This document shows, one piece after another, positions 37,271 through 47,048 of a stretch of 64,000 nt of DNA; position 1 is the first letter of the stretch; the number at the start of each line of letters is the position of its first letter. The position numbers were made by a program, and so were the translations under genes. Source of the stretch: Acidimicrobiia bacterium (GTDB taxonomy: Bacteria > Actinomycetota > Acidimicrobiia > Spongiisociales > Spongiisociaceae). The stretch spans positions 16,949 through 80,948 of the forward strand of contig JBFGLM010000020.1 in assembly GCA_041576165.1 (NCBI GenBank), written 5' to 3'. The notes under the pieces were generated by a model. It was not told the DNA's origin. It saw only the letters and a program-made list of their open reading frames with translations, and did not search any database.

Positions 37271-37792
37271 TCAGGGGAGCCCGGCGATGTACGTGACGAG
37301 GCCGTCGATCTCTGCGTCGCTCAGGGTAGAGGTGTAATTTGACGGCATGATGCCGCTATTGAACCCGCTGGCGACCGACGCGTTCGGGTCGACGATCGAC
37401 TCGCGCAGGTAGGCCTCGTCGATCGTGCGTCCGTCGGGCGCCGTGGAGCCGAACAAGCCGGCCCAGGTGGGCCCCACCCGTTCGCTTCCATCAATCGAGT
37501 GGCACGCAAGACATCCCACGTTCTGAGCGATCGTGGCACCGTCGACGTCGAGGTTCGCTGCGCCCTCGTCGGCGGCCGGGGCCGACTCTGACGCCGCGGG
37601 CATCATCGGCATCATCGTATCGGGCCTGTGCGAGGCCTCGCGCGACACCAGGACCAGAAACAGGAGGCCCAACACTGCGAAGAAGCCTGCCAGGACTCCG
37701 ATTCCGAACAGCGCACCACGTGGCGGGGGCTGGAGCGTATCCGGATCCGCGTGAATCTCGTCTGCTTGGTGCATGGTGGCAGTTGACGACAT
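37271..37792 (-). CDS. membrane-anchored monoheme cytochrome c
   Basis: TM helix, CLACH, GPTWAGL, YLRESIVDP, IMP axial Met. Confidence 0.9.
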   Translation of the reverse strand: MSSTATMHQADEIHADPDTLQPPPRGALFGIGVLAGFFAVLGLLFLVLVSREASHRPDTMMPMMPAASESAPAADEGAANLDVDGATIAQNVGCLACHSIDGSERVGPTWAGLFGSTAPDGRTIDEAYLRESIVDPNASVASGFNSGIMPSNYTSTLSDAEIDGLVTYIAGLP

Positions 37793-37902
37793 CCCGGTGA
37801 CCGAGGACCAGGGCAGCAACGTCCATCAGGCCGGGCCGAATGACCCTAAAAAGCCCGGCCGTGCGTGCGGATCATGGGTCAACCCGATTAGAGGATGACG
37901 AG

Positions 37903-38457
37903 GTGGCCCCACTCACGCGACGCGAATTCCTGTTCCTTGGCGTAGCGACCGGAGCGACTGCCGCGGTAGGCGTCGTGCTTCCGATCATGCGCACGGTCGA
38001 GGGAGAACCGGTGGCCACTTCGCAGCCGGCGCTGGTCGGCCTGTTCCCGCGCCAGTCCGTGGCGAAGGTGTCGGACCTGATGCCGGGCGAGCCGGTGCTG
38101 TTTGACTATCCGCTCGCTGGTCAGGCGAACATGCTCGTCAAGTTGGGAACGCCGGTCGCTACCGGAGCAGGGGCGGACGGTGATCTGGTGGCGTTCTCAC
38201 GCATCTGCACCCACATGGGTTGTGTGATCGACGAATACCGGGCGGACGTCAATGTGCTGGGACCCTGCCCGTGCCACTTCTCGACATTCGACTTTGCCCA
38301 CAATGGCCAGGTCGTGCTGGGGCAGGCCACGCAGAACCTGCCGCAGGTTTTGCTCGAGATCGATGGAGACGACATCTACGCGGTCGGCGTCGTCCGGTTG
38401 ATCTACGGGTTCAATGATCCGCTCGTCAGTGCCGAACAGCTGGAGGTGGTCTCGTGA
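37903..38457 (+). CDS. aioB: Rieske [2Fe-2S] small subunit of arsenite oxidase/iodate reductase family (AioB/IdrB-like), Tat signal
   Basis: TRREFL Tat motif; CTHMGC and CPCHFSTFD; GQATQNLP...AVGV..LIYG; symbol is family-level only. Confidence 0.88.
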   Translation: MAPLTRREFLFLGVATGATAAVGVVLPIMRTVEGEPVATSQPALVGLFPRQSVAKVSDLMPGEPVLFDYPLAGQANMLVKLGTPVATGAGADGDLVAFSRICTHMGCVIDEYRADVNVLGPCPCHFSTFDFAHNGQVVLGQATQNLPQVLLEIDGDDIYAVGVVRLIYGFNDPLVSAEQLEVVS

Positions 38458-40934
38458 CGCAAGCGCTCCCTGCCAACGTACCGCTGCCGCCCCCCGACGC
38501 TGAACAGCGCATCATTTGCTGCGAGTACTGCCCGGTGGCGTGCGGTTACCAGGTCTACATCTGGCCGCTCGACCGCGAGGGTGGGCCGGCCGCAGCCGAC
38601 AACGCTCTCGGCGTTGACTTCCCGACGGCGCCGCTCAGCGGCCGCTGGCCGTCTCAGAACATGCACACCGTGGCCGAGGTCGACGGGGAGATGCGCAACG
38701 TGCTCATCATGCCCGATGCCGACATCCAGGCCGTGAACGTTGGAGGCACGCACTCGGTGCGAGGCGGCGCCCTCGCCAAGAAGCTGTACAACCCGGGAAG
38801 CCTCACCGGCGATCGCTACCTGCGACCCATGTTGCGGGTCCGGGGGGACCTGGTTCCAATTTCCTGGGACGTGGCCATTGACCTCGTCGCAAAGCTGTCT
38901 CGCCATGTAGTGGACAACTACGGCGAGCTGGCGTGGGGTATGAAGATCTACTCGTATCAGTTCTTCGAAAACACCTACGCGGCATCGAAGCTGGCTTTAC
39001 TCAACATCGGGACACCCAACTTCTCGCCCCACCATGCCCCGGCCGAGGGCGACGACGTGCCCGGCCTGTCAGACACCGGTATCGACGCATTCGGCTCCTC
39101 GTTCGAAGACGACAGAGCGGCTGACGTGCTGTTCATCGCGGGCTCCGACCCGTACGAGACCAAGACCGTGCGGTTCACGACGTGGCAACAGCCCGGGGGC
39201 GCGACCATCATCTACGTCGATCCCCGCAAGACGTTCACTGCCGCCTATGCGGAGGCTCACGGCGGCCTGCACCTGCAGCTGCTACCCGGCACCGACACGG
39301 CGCTGTACAACGCCATCGTGCGGGAGATCATCGCCCAGGGTTGGGAGGACGAAGAGTTCGTTTCTCAGTACACGGCTTCGCGGGCCGACCTGGACGCTGA
39401 GGACGGCTGGCGCCGACAGCTGTTCGGCCTGACGTTCGATGAGCTGCGGGAATACCTCTTCTCGCACGCCGACTTCACCCTCGAGGGCGCCGAGAGGGAA
39501 ACCGGAGTGCCGGCCGACAAGATCCGGCGAGCGGCGGAGCTGATGACGGGTGGCGGCGGAGACCGGCCGAAGACGACGATCCTTTTCGAGAAGGGTGTGT
39601 ACTGGTCGCACAACTACGAGAACACCGCCGCGATCGGCAATCTGGGCGTCGTGACGGGTTCTGTCGGGCGCGAAGGTCGGGCGATCAGCCGCATGGGTGG
39701 TCATCAGCGCGGAGGCATGAAGGCCGCCGGCTATCCCAAGGACAAGTCGCCCGACGAATACCAGGGCAACAAGATCGAGATGGACACCGAGCGGTGGTTC
39801 GTGCAAGGAAACACCCGCTTGCGCTGGATTGTCGGCACGAATTGGCTGGGGGCGATGGGCGCCACCCAGGCGCTGGTCGATGTCACCCGCCGTCTGACCT
39901 CGATTGGCCCCGTCGTGCCGTCGACCGACCCTGATCGGGCCTTCGAAGCCCTCAAGGCCCGTATCGACCAAGGCGGCACGGTCATCGTCCATCAGGAGAT
40001 ATATCCCAACGATTCGACGCCCTATGCCGACATCATTCTGGCCGCCGGCGGATGGGGAGAGGACAACTACACACGCAACAACGCGGAGCGCCGGCTGCGG
40101 CTATACGAGAAGATCGCCGATCCTCCTGGTGAGGCCAAGCCGGACTGGCAGATCTTTGCCGAAGTGGGTCGCAAGATGGGCTACGACGGGTTCGATTGGG
40201 CCGACACCAACGAGATCTTCGAGGAGACGGCTCCGTTTGCGTCGGGCCGCAAGGACTACACGGCGCTCATCGAAAAGGCGCAAGCGGACGGGGTTCGTGC
40301 CCACGATCTGCTCAAGACATACGGCAACACCGGCATCCAGACGCCGCTCACCCTCGAGGGCGGAGAGCTGGTCGGCACGCCTCGGCTGCACGCCGATCTG
40401 GCTTTCAAGACCAACTCGGGCAAGGCCAACTTCGTGCGGGCCGACTGGGATGACGTGAAAGCGCGCAATGCGATGCTGGCGCCGTCCGGCGATGAGCTAT
40501 GGGTGACGAACGGGCGGGTCAATGAATTGTGGAACAACTTGTTCGATCACGCCCGCCGCGAGATCTCGAACGAGCGCTTCCCAGTCAACTTCCTCGAGAT
40601 CTCGGAGAACGACGCAGCCGCCCGGGGCGTCGTGTCGGGTGATTTGCTCTCGATCGAGTCGGACGGAGTGCTTGATCAGCTAGGCCAACCAACGACGGGC
40701 TCGTTCACGGCCGTTGCATACGTCAGCCCGCTGGTTCCGGACGGCGTGACGTTCACGTACTTCCTGTTCCCCGGCCAGCCGTCCAACACTGTGACGCCCG
40801 CCGATACCAGCCTGCAGCCGATCAATCTGCGTTACAACTTCAAGCTCGGCAAGGGTCGGGTCTCCAAGATCGGATCCACCCGGCTCACCGAGACGATGTC
40901 CTTCGCTCCTCGGAATCTGGTACCAGGAGTGTGA
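38454..40934 (+). CDS. aioA: molybdopterin DMSO-reductase-family large subunit, arsenite oxidase/iodate reductase (AioA/IdrA-like) clade
   Basis: CEYCPVACGY [3Fe-4S] motif, HSVRGG, ENTY, EKG.YWS, RMGGHQ, NAERRLRLY, NGRVNE.W; symbol is family-level, substrate not established. Confidence 0.9.
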   Translation: MTQALPANVPLPPPDAEQRIICCEYCPVACGYQVYIWPLDREGGPAAADNALGVDFPTAPLSGRWPSQNMHTVAEVDGEMRNVLIMPDADIQAVNVGGTHSVRGGALAKKLYNPGSLTGDRYLRPMLRVRGDLVPISWDVAIDLVAKLSRHVVDNYGELAWGMKIYSYQFFENTYAASKLALLNIGTPNFSPHHAPAEGDDVPGLSDTGIDAFGSSFEDDRAADVLFIAGSDPYETKTVRFTTWQQPGGATIIYVDPRKTFTAAYAEAHGGLHLQLLPGTDTALYNAIVREIIAQGWEDEEFVSQYTASRADLDAEDGWRRQLFGLTFDELREYLFSHADFTLEGAERETGVPADKIRRAAELMTGGGGDRPKTTILFEKGVYWSHNYENTAAIGNLGVVTGSVGREGRAISRMGGHQRGGMKAAGYPKDKSPDEYQGNKIEMDTERWFVQGNTRLRWIVGTNWLGAMGATQALVDVTRRLTSIGPVVPSTDPDRAFEALKARIDQGGTVIVHQEIYPNDSTPYADIILAAGGWGEDNYTRNNAERRLRLYEKIADPPGEAKPDWQIFAEVGRKMGYDGFDWADTNEIFEETAPFASGRKDYTALIEKAQADGVRAHDLLKTYGNTGIQTPLTLEGGELVGTPRLHADLAFKTNSGKANFVRADWDDVKARNAMLAPSGDELWVTNGRVNELWNNLFDHARREISNERFPVNFLEISENDAAARGVVSGDLLSIESDGVLDQLGQPTTGSFTAVAYVSPLVPDGVTFTYFLFPGQPSNTVTPADTSLQPINLRYNFKLGKGRVSKIGSTRLTETMSFAPRNLVPGV

Positions 40935-40968: not shown

Positions 40969-41430
40969 ATGCCTCGGGCCGCCGTGAGCGCCCGGATGGA
41001 GCACAGGTATCGAGCGGTGAGACGCTGCTTGGAGGAGCCACCAGATGATCTGTGGGTCGCGCCCGGCGAGAACGTACCGATCATGCGTGCTTCGTTGCCG
41101 ACCGGGATTGAGATCCACCACGAAGTGGACGTAGAGATGGGTGCTTTCTATGAGTTGACCGAGCCGATCAAGATGTGTGGTCGGGATGTGGTGATACATG
41201 CTCACGGCCATGAACGTCTGTATCCCCGCTTCACCGGTTCGCTCGAGGCATACCCGACCAGGCGGGCCACCCAGCTGGAGCTGGCTGGAACATACGAAAT
41301 CCCCACCGGCGCGCCCGGGGTCATAGTTGACCACGTCCTCCTCGGACATCTCGCAGAGGCAACCCTCGCCGACTTGTTCGGCGTGGTAATGAGCAAAGTC
41401 AGCCAGTGCGCCGGTGTGGTCGAAGCATGA
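40969..41430 (+). CDS. hypothetical protein
   Basis: RLYPRFTGSLE...TQLELAGTYEIPTGAPG..VD...AEATL; co-oriented downstream of the Mo enzyme. Confidence 0.6.
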   Translation: MPRAAVSARMEHRYRAVRRCLEEPPDDLWVAPGENVPIMRASLPTGIEIHHEVDVEMGAFYELTEPIKMCGRDVVIHAHGHERLYPRFTGSLEAYPTRRATQLELAGTYEIPTGAPGVIVDHVLLGHLAEATLADLFGVVMSKVSQCAGVVEA

Positions 41431-41578
41431 GGCATGCAGCCGACGGCTCTGAGGAGCTCCGCGTCTGAGCGTCTGCCAGCCCGCGGCACGGGTTCCGGGG
41501 AGCCGGGTGACGGCCTGTCGCGCCGTCCGGACCGAGAAGCCTGAAGCGGGGCGGCAGGCAACGGCGTATCGTTCGGGG

Positions 41579-41932
41579 ATGGATGTTGACTATCCCGGCT
41601 TCGGGACGATCGTCATAGACGGCAGCATGTTCGATCACGATGTTGTGATAGAAGGTGGCGTCGTGCGTCCCCGGGACAAGGGCCCGTCGAAGGGCCTCAA
41701 GGCCCGATTCGGGCACACTCCGCTGACGGCGGCGGAGGACATCCCGTGGTCGAAACCCCAGCTAGTCATCGGCTCGGGTTACTCGGGTCGGCTCCCCGTT
41801 GGTCCCGACGTCGAGGTCGCTGCGGCAGATCACGGCGTCGAACTGATAGTCGTGCCGACCGCTGACGCCTGCTCCCTGCTACGCGCAAGGACACCTTCGG
41901 ACGTGAACGCCATCCTGCACGTCACCTGCTGA
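41579..41932 (+). CDS. Mth938-like domain protein
   Basis: FGTIVIDG..FDHDVVI...GHTPL...LVIGSGYSG.L...NAILHVTC. Confidence 0.85.
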   Translation: MDVDYPGFGTIVIDGSMFDHDVVIEGGVVRPRDKGPSKGLKARFGHTPLTAAEDIPWSKPQLVIGSGYSGRLPVGPDVEVAAADHGVELIVVPTADACSLLRARTPSDVNAILHVTC

Positions 41933-44842: not shown

Positions 44843-45400
44843 TCACCCGCTACCGGGATCTATCTTCACGCCTGAGAAGCTGACATCGACAGCTTCCGCG
44901 TAGCGCCGGCCGTTCTTCTTGTCGTGACGATGGAAGGTGGGCGGGTCAACGTGAACGTCGATCTGATACGAAGCGGCTTCGGGCACCGTCACGTTGGCGC
45001 CGTAGTGGTACAGCCACGGATGCCACAGCATGGGGAGCCGTCCCTCGAATGCGACGGCGCCGGTCGATTCGTCGGTCACCTTGACCGTCACCTCGAGCCC
45101 GGGGATGAACCGGTGGTCGGCCGCGTCACGAACCGAGATCTCGATGTGGGCGTTGTATTCGTCAGGCTCGCGCCAGACGAGGCTGCCGTCGACCATCTCG
45201 TGCATACCCTCGGCGCCTTCGATGGCATAGGCCACAATTACGTCACCGACGTGCTCATCGCCACCCGCGTCAGCGACCGTGTTGGCCATGTGGTGGAGAG
45301 CCGTTACGTATGCGTCACCCTGGGCCTGAGCCATGCGATGCTGATGAGGGGCGGCCTCGTCCGACGCCTTGGTCGGCGGGACACCGGTCGTCTGAGTCAT
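44843..45400 (-). CDS. P19/Tp34-like 'iron transporter' family protein without signal peptide
   Basis: YAIEGAEGM...AHIEISV...RFIPGLEV...PMLWHPWLYHYGANV; GGAGG RBS. Confidence 0.75.
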   Translation of the reverse strand: MTQTTGVPPTKASDEAAPHQHRMAQAQGDAYVTALHHMANTVADAGGDEHVGDVIVAYAIEGAEGMHEMVDGSLVWREPDEYNAHIEISVRDAADHRFIPGLEVTVKVTDESTGAVAFEGRLPMLWHPWLYHYGANVTVPEAASYQIDVHVDPPTFHRHDKKNGRRYAEAVDVSFSGVKIDPGSG

Positions 45401-45554
45401 GATGTGGCCTCCGCTGCTTCCTGCGATGTGCACCATCAGTACCCGGCTACCGGGCTGAGGAAACACGACGCACCGATGACGCGGCTGGCGCCGGTGGGTT
45501 GCCCCCGGGCCAGCCGCATGGGACCGGCCTGCATCTGACGCGCTGCCCTGGCTG

Positions 45555-47048
45555 CTATTCGCCGACCACCTCCACCGTACGTGCGCCGGGTTCGCCACCG
45601 AGGGCGATGCGGCGCAGGGCAACGTTGTTGTCGGAGCGTATCTCCTCGAGCCGGCCGTCTTGGTTGGTCGCCACCTCCAGGAGGTACTCGCCATTCGGGA
45701 CGTCCGTGATGTCGATCCACTGGCCGGGAACGCTCTGGTAGTAGGAGTCGCCCCAGCCGACTTGGAGGATCTCCCTTATCCACATGGCTCCGAAGAAACC
45801 GCATCTCGTCTCGAGGGCAGCATCCGACGGGCGATAGTCGGCGTGGGGAATGGTCAGGTCGATGGGGTCGGTGGGCATCAGGCAGAAGGCCTCCTTGCCG
45901 CTGACTGCGACCGGGTTGCCGGCGTCGTCGATGATGCGGTATTGCGCGAAGTCCTTGAAGTGCCAGTGCCGGTGACCTGGCACCGGGTCATATTCGAGTT
46001 CCCCGACGAGTTCGCGGGACACGATCACGCCGTCCTGGTAGAGGTATTGATAGGCGTCCATCACTGGTTCGCCGAGACGCCGAAACCCTTCGACGACCAG
46101 CGGACCATCGCCACCGTTCCACACGTTGGCGCCGAAAATGATGGCGTCGACCCCCTCAGAGCCCGGGTCGTCCGGGCCGGCCATCATGATGTTGAACGGT
46201 GGGAGGGCGATCAGGTCTGGCAGACCGCTGGCGTCGGCGGCAACTTCTGGAGCCTGGGGGGTCTGCGCCGCCAGGCCGTGGATGTCGCCGACTGGCGGCC
46301 CCGTGGCCAGATCTCCGAGTCCCCCGTCGGTCTCGTCGCCGGTGGCGACCGTTACTGCCATTGAGGCGCGGGCCCGGTTGGCAGGGATTCCGAACAATCT
46401 GCGGTATCTGGGTTTGATCTCGATGTCGAGACGGTAGGTGCCGTCCGGCACTGCACGATCTACGAAAATCGAATCGGGTGCCCGCCCGGTCCAGCCGGCG
46501 TCGATGCCCCACACCATGCCGGTGGTGAGTTCACTGACGACGCAGGAATCGGCAAACTCGGACGTGGACGGACCGGTGTCATCCAGTCGTGCCCGATCCC
46601 ACGTGAGCGGACAGAACGGGATGTCGGCAGAATGGACGACGCCGCCGGCTTCTGTCGACATTGTGACGTTGAAAAAGGCGTCGAATCCCTGGCTGAGATC
46701 GGGCACCGTCCAACCGGGTAGGCGGCGCGTGCGGGCTATCTCACCTGCGTCGTCACGCACAATTTGCCGAGCGGTGATCTCGCCGTCGCGCTGGCGGTTC
46801 ACGTGTACTTCGAACTCGCCGCCGGTGGCTGCTACGAAGCTGGGCAGTCCTTCGAGGACGAAGGAGCCTTCTGGGGACCGGACCTGGTCGATCTCGGACT
46901 CAGTGACGATCAGCCGCAGCGAAGGGAAGCTCGGGCGGGGCGAAGGTTGCGCGTCGGACTCGGCTTCCGCTCCTATCGACGCGCCGCTGATCAGGAGCGC
47001 GGTGATGATGGCCAGGCTGGCCAGACGGGTCACACGGATGAACCGCAT
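45555..47048 (-). CDS. secreted lysyl-oxidase-family protein
   Basis: Signal peptide; GHRHWHF Cu-binding motif; KEAFCL; GWGDSY; WIDITDVPNGEY. Confidence 0.85.
   Translation of the reverse strand: MRFIRVTRLASLAIITALLISGASIGAEAESDAQPSPRPSFPSLRLIVTESEIDQVRSPEGSFVLEGLPSFVAATGGEFEVHVNRQRDGEITARQIVRDDAGEIARTRRLPGWTVPDLSQGFDAFFNVTMSTEAGGVVHSADIPFCPLTWDRARLDDTGPSTSEFADSCVVSELTTGMVWGIDAGWTGRAPDSIFVDRAVPDGTYRLDIEIKPRYRRLFGIPANRARASMAVTVATGDETDGGLGDLATGPPVGDIHGLAAQTPQAPEVAADASGLPDLIALPPFNIMMAGPDDPGSEGVDAIIFGANVWNGGDGPLVVEGFRRLGEPVMDAYQYLYQDGVIVSRELVGELEYDPVPGHRHWHFKDFAQYRIIDDAGNPVAVSGKEAFCLMPTDPIDLTIPHADYRPSDAALETRCGFFGAMWIREILQVGWGDSYYQSVPGQWIDITDVPNGEYLLEVATNQDGRLEEIRSDNNVALRRIALGGEPGARTVEVVGE

Follow-up and report, generated by a model that had tools for sequence, protein, structure and literature searches.

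What does a probably exported molybdenum (Mo) enzyme of the arsenite oxidase (Aio) and iodate reductase (Idr) lineage do for a marine actinobacterium? A stretch of 64,000 nucleotides (the window) from an Acidimicrobiia bacterium (assembly GCA_041576165.1, contig JBFGLM010000020.1) raises this question, as it carries a cassette for such an enzyme at positions 37271 to 40934. A sequence-only reading of the locus had left the substrate open. Here, the answer is narrowed towards a reductase that operates at low O2, and oxidation of arsenite or antimonite becomes less likely. We favour, at somewhat less than even confidence, an enzyme that is induced under low O2 and acts as a terminal reductase, with iodate the likeliest of the high-potential oxyanions that it might reduce. 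A low-O2 reductase is favoured because of two elements that the sequence-only reading missed, a conserved DosR/OsdR-type promoter and a divergently transcribed electron carrier. The features of the cassette, in window coordinates, are as follows.

37840..38457, + strand: Rieske open reading frame (ORF), AioB/IdrB type, [2Fe-2S]; twin-arginine translocation (Tat) motif TRREFL followed by a hydrophobic stretch; CTHMGC...CPCH
38454..40934, + strand: Mo-bis(pyranopterin guanine dinucleotide)/[3Fe-4S] catalytic subunit of 826 amino acids (aa), assigned by TIGR02693, fold, residue census and trees
37271..37819, - strand: membrane-anchored monohaem cytochrome c with one hydrophobic helix, CLACH and a match to Pfam Cytochrom_C
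37832..37847, no strand: OsdR/DevR(DosR)-type palindrome CGGGCCGAATGACCCT, identified by matrix score and by its match to the published OsdR consensus
37870..37875, + strand: predicted -10 hexamer GATCAT, 22 nucleotides (nt) 3' of the palindrome

Membership of the Aio/Idr branch and phylogenetic placement

Both the Rieske and the large-subunit ORF are intact, the latter running without interruption. As described earlier, a Tat-Rieske gene is followed by the large-subunit gene, and the stop of the one and the start of the other share GTGA at 38454-38457; the motifs CEYCPVACG, YSYQFFENTY, HHAPAEGDD and RMGGHQRG, reported at the same time, are found exactly in 38454-40934. Since ATG 37840 falls within the palindrome, the true Rieske start is likely GTG 37903.

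The Rieske subunit scores 132 bits with TIGR02694 (cut-off 95.65), shares 41% identity with IdrB of Azonexus hydrophilus NCP973 and has AioB as its best PDB matches. The large subunit scores 444 bits with TIGR02693 (cut-off 359) and carries the [3Fe-4S] motif C-x2-C-x3-C-x70-S at C23, C26, C30 and S101. Its AlphaFold model (pLDDT 90.5) aligns with AioA structures at TM-scores of 0.83-0.87, and the top 11 Foldseek matches are all arsenite oxidase. The cassette belongs to the Aio/Idr branch of the dimethyl sulfoxide (DMSO) reductase family. Passing TIGR02693 is uninformative as to AioA identity, because the idr genes of NCP973 carry the same annotation.

The large subunit is 40% identical to NCP973 IdrA and 28-30% identical to AioA; its closest named homologues are from Acidimicrobiia, which makes an actinobacterial host most likely. 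In our main tree of 31 rows, rooted on distant Mo enzymes, AioA branches first, followed by an intermediate pair, the Halorubrum branch and then a clade with 100/100 support. This clade unites the group of the host protein with a pair formed by a Chloroflexota-rich branch and IdrA. The group of the host protein (the host clade; support 100/99) holds proteins from Acidimicrobiia and Thermoplasmata, one from Nitrososphaerales and one from Dehalococcoidia (P0097); other Chloroflexota proteins form the next branch. The IdrA clade (100/100) excludes the host protein. A site-mixture model and a 52-row tree agree with this placement, while an earlier FastTree run did not resolve the group. Frameshifted L061 and partial matches are left out of the trees. 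Approximately unbiased (AU) tests, on groups named after earlier trees had been seen, reject a union of the host clade with AioA (p 2e-7), with the Halorubrum group (p 9e-6) and with IdrA without the Chloroflexota-rich branch (p 0.002), and also with the Chloroflexota-rich branch alone. The separate sister clade proposed from the sequence thus stands, nested in neither AioA nor IdrA, and the cassette should be filed under neither name.

The distribution of the cassette is patchy. It is carried by 1 of 60 near relatives, where the other match, in G056, is an idr locus, and by 8 of 400 class genomes, two of these eight being partial at contig ends. From the class count and all clade counts G268, a true idr locus, was dropped, and the pairs G448/G283 and G435/G287 were each counted once. 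The named Halorubrum proteins were obtained through a homologue search with P0127; P0124, which had served as a stand-in by a guess from its acidity, was discarded, as no named haloarchaeon is among the 120 matches listed. One Thermoplasmata genome carries two large-subunit copies (L003 and L005), the second flanked by molybdenum cofactor (Moco) biosynthesis genes.

Catalytic pocket and peroxidases

Engrola et al. describe eight second-sphere residues of AioA, Asp169, His199, Arg201, Glu207, Lys413, Arg447, His451 and Glu453 (PMC10448176). We compared these sites in an alignment of 242 proteins, with the geometry taken from the alignment to NT-26. The host pocket comprises S167, H193, H194, A195, D201, K380, R413, H417 and R419. 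Four of the eight AioA residues are kept (His199, Lys413, Arg447, His451) and four are changed (Asp169 to S167, Arg201 to A195, Glu207 to D201, Glu453 to R419). The Glu453 site holds Glu in 32/32 AioA, haloarchaeal-branch and intermediate rows, and Arg in 115/115 nearest homologues (114 of 119 listed matches, at least 780 aa long, plus the host protein; the next branch contributes at least one of them, P0122) and in 71/72 idr-locus proteins. Arg201 and Glu207 are lost in both host-clade homologues and Idr proteins. At the Asn200 site, 113 of the 115 have His (H194 in the host) and 68 of 72 IdrA have Asp. By our own census, rather than by any published definition of an IdrA pocket, the host agrees with IdrA at the Asp169, Arg201, Glu207 and Glu453 sites and departs from it at HHAP, one of the motifs noticed earlier, where IdrA has Asp.

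So the change from an acidic funnel, which suits uncharged As(OH)3, to a basic funnel maps to the branch shared with IdrA, and the Halorubrum enzymes lie before this change. Arg at the Glu453 site would favour an anion. The tested enzyme that can be placed on the Arg side of the tree, that of NCP973, is an iodate reductase.

Two further groups were seen in these alignments. P0125, P0436-P0443 and L160 make up one, intermediate in type, in which H-N-R...E and HQE are retained and the AioA glycine loop and Asp169 are lost. P0134, P0150, P0151, P0155 and similar proteins, with L173, are the other, a separate Aio-like family of 1100-2100 aa with the [3Fe-4S] motif and GGHQKGW, which puts Lys at the Glu453 site. 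In the 52-row tree this family lies between AioA and the Arg clade, and one member is from Ca. Anammoxibacter.

The lack of peroxidases reported for the locus extends to the whole genome. The host genome (96.5% complete) contains no match to CCP_MauG, and IdrP1/P2 of NCP973 find no BLAST or tblastn match in it. None of 39 clade loci has an IdrP match; 20 of them have at least 3 kb upstream, two of these being duplicates. Single CCP_MauG matches occur in four clade genomes, all unlinked to the cassette. Three of these proteins show 20-28% identity to IdrP over most of their length (tblastn), and that of L194 gave no tblastn match. The adjacent IdrP1/P2 genes that mark IdrABP1P2 are thus absent from the cassette. 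Gene order, by contrast, is no marker: B precedes A in the idr and aio loci mapped, and the B-A order put forward as a distinguishing mark recurs on the NCP973 plasmid (NZ_CP151407.1), which reads peroxidase, peroxidase, B, A and cytochrome c, with A annotated as arsenite oxidase.

Within the IdrA clade, two lineages have several kb of upstream sequence and no IdrP match (L031, L117, L130 and L137; L033, L116, L128, L129, L133 and L151), and may represent repeated idrP losses. L188/L190/L195 (G268:C3:76269-81635) and L091 (G056) are true idr clusters with peroxidases from the host's own order. In G268, a cytochrome c 38% similar to that of the host lies immediately upstream of the peroxidases.

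A predicted hypoxia-type promoter and a divergent carrier

We searched for a DosR-type box because genes for Usp, Hsp20, PPDK and NarL-type regulators had been noticed near relatives of the cassette. The first pattern was picked after the host site had been seen; it has exact matches ahead of B at 11 of 33 clade loci, where 0.7 would be expected, and at none of 111 others. Scoring with the published OsdR consensus (PMC5069765), 17 of 29 non-redundant clade upstream regions pass (1.3 expected), against 2 of 83 idr loci (1.6 expected) and 0 of 6 aio loci. The host box, a 16-bp palindrome close to AGGGCCGATCGGCCCT of the OsdR/DevR(DosR) regulon (PMC5069765), scores 14.0 bits with a matrix from 17 other loci, which excludes the host site and was trained on sites chosen by the first pattern; 21 sites in 5.1 Mb reach at least that score. 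Over the 64-kb window, the plain pattern has 5 matches where 4.9 are expected and is not significant alone.

Instead, support for the box comes from its position, its conservation and the spacing to the -10 element, of which the spacing is the independent test. In 19/19 loci (18 examined plus L016), the box is followed at 22-23 nt by the start of an xAxxxT hexamer, at a chance of ~0.07 per locus; the hexamer reads TAxxxT in 12 of them. These 19 loci are kin and not independent, with large subunits 60-90% identical (median 68%), and the spacer sequence itself is not conserved. A sigma-70 scan found no promoter. The divergent carrier is present in 18 of the 19 (in L112 at ~0.8 kb), and the remaining locus is incomplete.

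The host genome encodes, at C13:35721-36395, a DevR-like regulator (best PDB match DevR, E 8e-62; no NCBIfam model above cut-off), clustered with a DosT/DevS-like GAF kinase and with Usp-like and PNPOx genes; boxes of 10.7 and 13.8 bits lie within this cluster. A DevR-like match (E<=1e-50) is found in 12/12 box-carrying genomes searched, but also in 6/9 others. With a conserved box, a -10 element at activator distance and a regulator in the genome, the cassette is a predicted member of an OsdR/DevR regulon. In Streptomyces, OsdR controls the respiratory nitrate reductase Nar2 (PMC5069765).

Other observations concern the box. A second box-like site at 41691-41706 (11.5 bits) lies inside ORF 41507-41932 and is probably due to chance. 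L012, titled Kiloniellales, nevertheless has a cassette of the Acidimicrobiia type that includes the box, with a DevR-like gene at another site, and may be misbinned or misnamed. L001, L002, L015 and L017 form a subgroup without box and without carrier; in L015 and L017 the Rieske motif is altered to C-S/T-H-M-G-W...C-P-G-H, so that the disulfide Cys pair is missing.

The span covered by the sequence-only reading took in 37271-37819, and its text passed over the cytochrome c encoded there. The gene is transcribed divergently from the Rieske and large-subunit genes, likely from ATG 37792 or 37774. Among solved structures, 1W2L, the cytochrome c domain of an oxidase subunit II, comes closest (E 1.6e-17), and the protein is predicted to be the redox partner of the Rieske subunit. 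The same divergent slot is taken by a cytochrome c in 10 distinct loci and by a cupredoxin in 8 (host locus included), two of the latter being assigned by motif or BLAST cluster only. What recurs is a divergently encoded, singly anchored one-electron protein; Thermoplasmata loci have Moco genes in its place. As an indicator of reaction direction, the carrier type proved uninformative, since a cytochrome c is likewise encoded beside aio and idr clusters.

The genes flanking the cassette are unrelated housekeeping genes (PPK2, P-type ATPase, PolX/PHP protein, NAD-glutamate dehydrogenase), and the GC content at third codon positions is close between the large subunit (0.82) and two neighbours (0.77). 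The cassette is single-copy in a genome of 5.1 Mb (7.5% contamination) that also encodes TatC, MoaA, a bc complex and a caa3 oxidase, as well as a KatG-sized haem peroxidase with two domains (catalase-peroxidase). Contigs of run X1 match most of the window with 0-2 differences, although the pieces listed leave ~39628-40243 uncovered; X1 may be the source sample and is thus not independent support. Five runs from two studies contain at least half of the sequence words, four labelled marine and one soil; the best matches are with runs labelled marine metagenome.

Directly 3' of the large subunit, a 153-aa ORF (40969-41430) has no Pfam or NCBIfam match and does not group with any neighbouring ORF from the related loci compared. 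Further on, 44843-47048 encodes a lysyl-oxidase-domain protein (497 aa) and then an Fe2+-transport-domain protein. Elsewhere in the genome (G000), contig C43 (L094:3747-8738) encodes a type II DMSO-reductase-family subunit of 1149 aa with an Fe-S partner, and C13 (L096:5807-8812) a DmsA/PhsA-like Mo enzyme of 1001 aa; both fall below every NCBIfam cut-off shown.

Proposed function and comparison with known systems

The predicted low-O2 induction, the IdrA-type pocket and the dedicated carrier make a substitute terminal reductase the simplest reading. Iodate is our first choice because, in published work, IdrAB is fed from cytochrome c, idr is induced at low O2 and Idr is a proposed electron sink. 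In marine aerobes, idr responds to low O2 and to iodate above 0.1 uM (PMC11445184), and published models have IdrP1P2 detoxify a side product of the cytochrome c-fed IdrAB (PMC8692401). The cassette likely functions in the manner of IdrAB, with IdrP absent and hypoxia as the predicted controlling signal. Falling O2 would activate the DevR-like regulator, which would bind 37832-37847 and turn on the B-A genes, and perhaps the divergent cytochrome too. The folded AB pair would be exported by Tat and probably held at the membrane via the uncleaved signal helix of B. Electrons would flow from quinol through the bc complex to the anchored cytochrome c (a cupredoxin in relatives), and on through the Rieske and [3Fe-4S] centres to Mo, replacing the path to the O2-starved caa3 oxidase. 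An anion bound in the Arg-lined funnel would be reduced by oxygen-atom transfer, iodate yielding HOI and then iodide. As marine iodate is sub-micromolar, the flux would be small, and by-product oxidant could be left to housekeeping enzymes such as the catalase-peroxidase rather than to IdrP1P2. In its fuller form, which we hold slightly more tentatively, the proposal is of a respiratory reductase, belonging to the arsenite-oxidase lineage and independent of peroxidases, that marine Acidimicrobiia have made part of their DosR dormancy programme.

Several observations weigh against this proposal. The clade is known from its sequences, with a function proposed by analogy to IdrA, and, as its union with IdrA alone is rejected, it lies two nodes from any tested iodate reductase. 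Its pocket is not identical to that of IdrA, since His194 replaces Asp, and in NCP973 IdrA the Glu453 site is taken by Cys rather than by Arg. The active enzyme bands from DN11 and SCT contain IdrP1/P2 (PMC10149662), which may be necessary for turnover. Box and carrier are both missing from twelve clade loci, and many other high-scoring box sites in the genome precede genes without obvious hypoxia link. In several relatives, a DevR-like regulator and a PAS kinase adjoin the cassette, so the box may respond to something other than O2. Arsenite oxidase, as its NCBIfam name has it, classically passes electrons to cytochrome c or blue-copper proteins; because Aio acceptors are of the same type and the genome holds a caa3 oxidase, the carriers do not fix the direction of the reaction. 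Finally, one of the runs with half of the sequence words is labelled soil.

A hypoxia-induced reductase of another oxyanion (nitrate, chlorate, bromate, selenate or tellurate) would draw on the same promoter and pocket evidence. The clade-specific His194, which differs from IdrA, and the missing peroxidases would fit such an enzyme, OsdR/DevR regulons include nitrate respiration (PMC5069765), and 0/3 other host Mo-enzyme ORFs scanned pass the NarG or NapA cut-off. We rank it second after iodate reduction but nevertheless consider it unlikely, as the nearest tested relatives reduce iodate and the literature examined yielded no Aio/Idr-branch enzyme with such a substrate. More doubtful is an oxidase of a low-potential anion (sulfite, phosphite, thio- or methyl-arsenite) or of iodide that feeds a microaerobic chain, the least probable reading we weighed. 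It could make use of the Arg-lined funnel, of a carrier homologous to the entry cytochrome of oxidase subunit II and of the caa3 oxidase, but the hypoxia-type promoter speaks against it and no sulfur-, phosphorus- or arsenic-handling neighbours were recognised. Iodide oxidation, at about +0.7 V, is moreover uphill for an ordinary cytochrome c.

The annotation itself would suggest a divergent arsenite or antimonite oxidase that passes electrons to the anchored cytochrome c or cupredoxin and on to the caa3 oxidase. Both subunits pass the Aio models, His199, Lys413, Arg447 and His451 are kept, and the carriers are of types used by Aio. The changes in the pocket need not abolish this activity: D169A and E453A lowered that of NT-26 by only 30% and 65% (PMC10448176), and the Halorubrum homologues also lack Asp169. 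However, idr-locus proteins receive the same annotation, Glu207, Arg201, Asn200 and Glu453 are all changed, the AU tests reject a grouping with AioA or Halorubrum, and a chain that depends on O2 would be an odd match for a hypoxia box. Nor does the genomic context point to arsenic. No ars, aioXSR or phosphate-transport genes were recognised among 32 + 119 neighbouring ORFs scanned, the 119 being drawn from 195 called, some from other branches. Acr3 over cut-off occurs in 39/200 class genomes and in 0/24 distinct clade genomes, of which 9 have a reported completeness of at least 90%, so that the contrast is modest evidence; habitat, kinship and incomplete genomes confound it, which takes away from our own proposal. 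The host genome has no Acr3 over cut-off and no ArsB, and one LMWPc-family gene. Taken together, we regard arsenite oxidation as improbable and retain a low-O2 oxyanion reductase as the favoured reading.

Peroxidase-less relatives of IdrA are already in print, with two members; the carrier and the promoter are new here. Reyes-Umana et al. show a peroxidase-less "unknown clade" of Halorubrum/Halobiforma and the Dehalococcoidia protein MBT97654.1, list Halobiforma and one Dehalococcoidia beside IdrA members in their supplement, and call the Aio-to-Idr transition open (PMC8692401). The host clade may overlap their member MBT97654.1. Halorubrum enzymes have been linked to arsenite oxidation at the organism level (PMC8692401). 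The survey of Li et al., in the part considered here, is limited to idrABP1P2 (PMC13455634). We found no description of the clade, carrier or promoter, and no paper joining idrA, Acidimicrobiia and iodate; subscription journals and preprint supplements may hold such sequences.

Surveys define iodate reducers by idrABP1P2 synteny, and whatever else passes the aioA model is counted as arsenite oxidase. If the host clade reduces iodate, the iodine cycle would gain actinobacterial and archaeal players and marine "aioA" counts would be inflated, hiding a so far overlooked way in which iodate, or another oxyanion, is reduced in sediments poor in oxygen. The clade would then be a living intermediate, in which the pocket switch from arsenite to anion preceded peroxidase recruitment. 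If it reduces something else, it would represent a new activity in the one Mo-enzyme branch without a protein ligand. In either case, a system of two or three genes makes testable whether catalysis needs IdrP1P2 and which pocket changes lead from arsenite oxidase to iodate reductase.

Set beside known systems, the cassette shares with AioBA (P. banfieldiae NT-26, A. faecalis) the fold, the [3Fe-4S] motif, the four kept pocket residues, the B-A order, the lack of peroxidases and a cytochrome c or cupredoxin partner. It differs in its low identity, in the changes at Asp169, Asn200, Arg201, Glu207 and Glu453, in the rejected grouping and in that no aioXSR or ars genes were found nearby. Among the targets described in the parts of the OsdR/DevR literature considered (PMC5069765), there is no Aio/Idr-type enzyme. 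Like the "unknown clade", the host clade lies between AioA and IdrA without peroxidases. The Halorubrum proteins (P0434, P0435), however, retain H-N-R...E and HQE and diverge before the host clade, and a union of the two is rejected. Wells et al. consider AioA and IdrA a single lineage and make the case for iodate reduction as the ancestral activity (PMC10100899), whereas our rooted trees place AioA basal. The IdrABP1P2 systems compared were those of A. hydrophilus NCP973, Denitromonas IR-12, Pseudomonas SCT and Azoarcus DN11. In contrast to these, the host has no IdrP1/P2 detected in locus or genome, falls outside the IdrA clade, has His194 instead of Asp and carries a membrane-anchored divergent carrier; its promoter is of OsdR/DevR type, where NCP973 has a sigma-54 regulator and kinase upstream. 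What it has in common with them is a Tat-Rieske protein paired with a Mo/[3Fe-4S] subunit, B before A, a nearby c-type cytochrome gene, Ser at the Asp169 site, the loss of Arg201 and Glu207 and, as in most IdrA, Arg at the Glu453 site.

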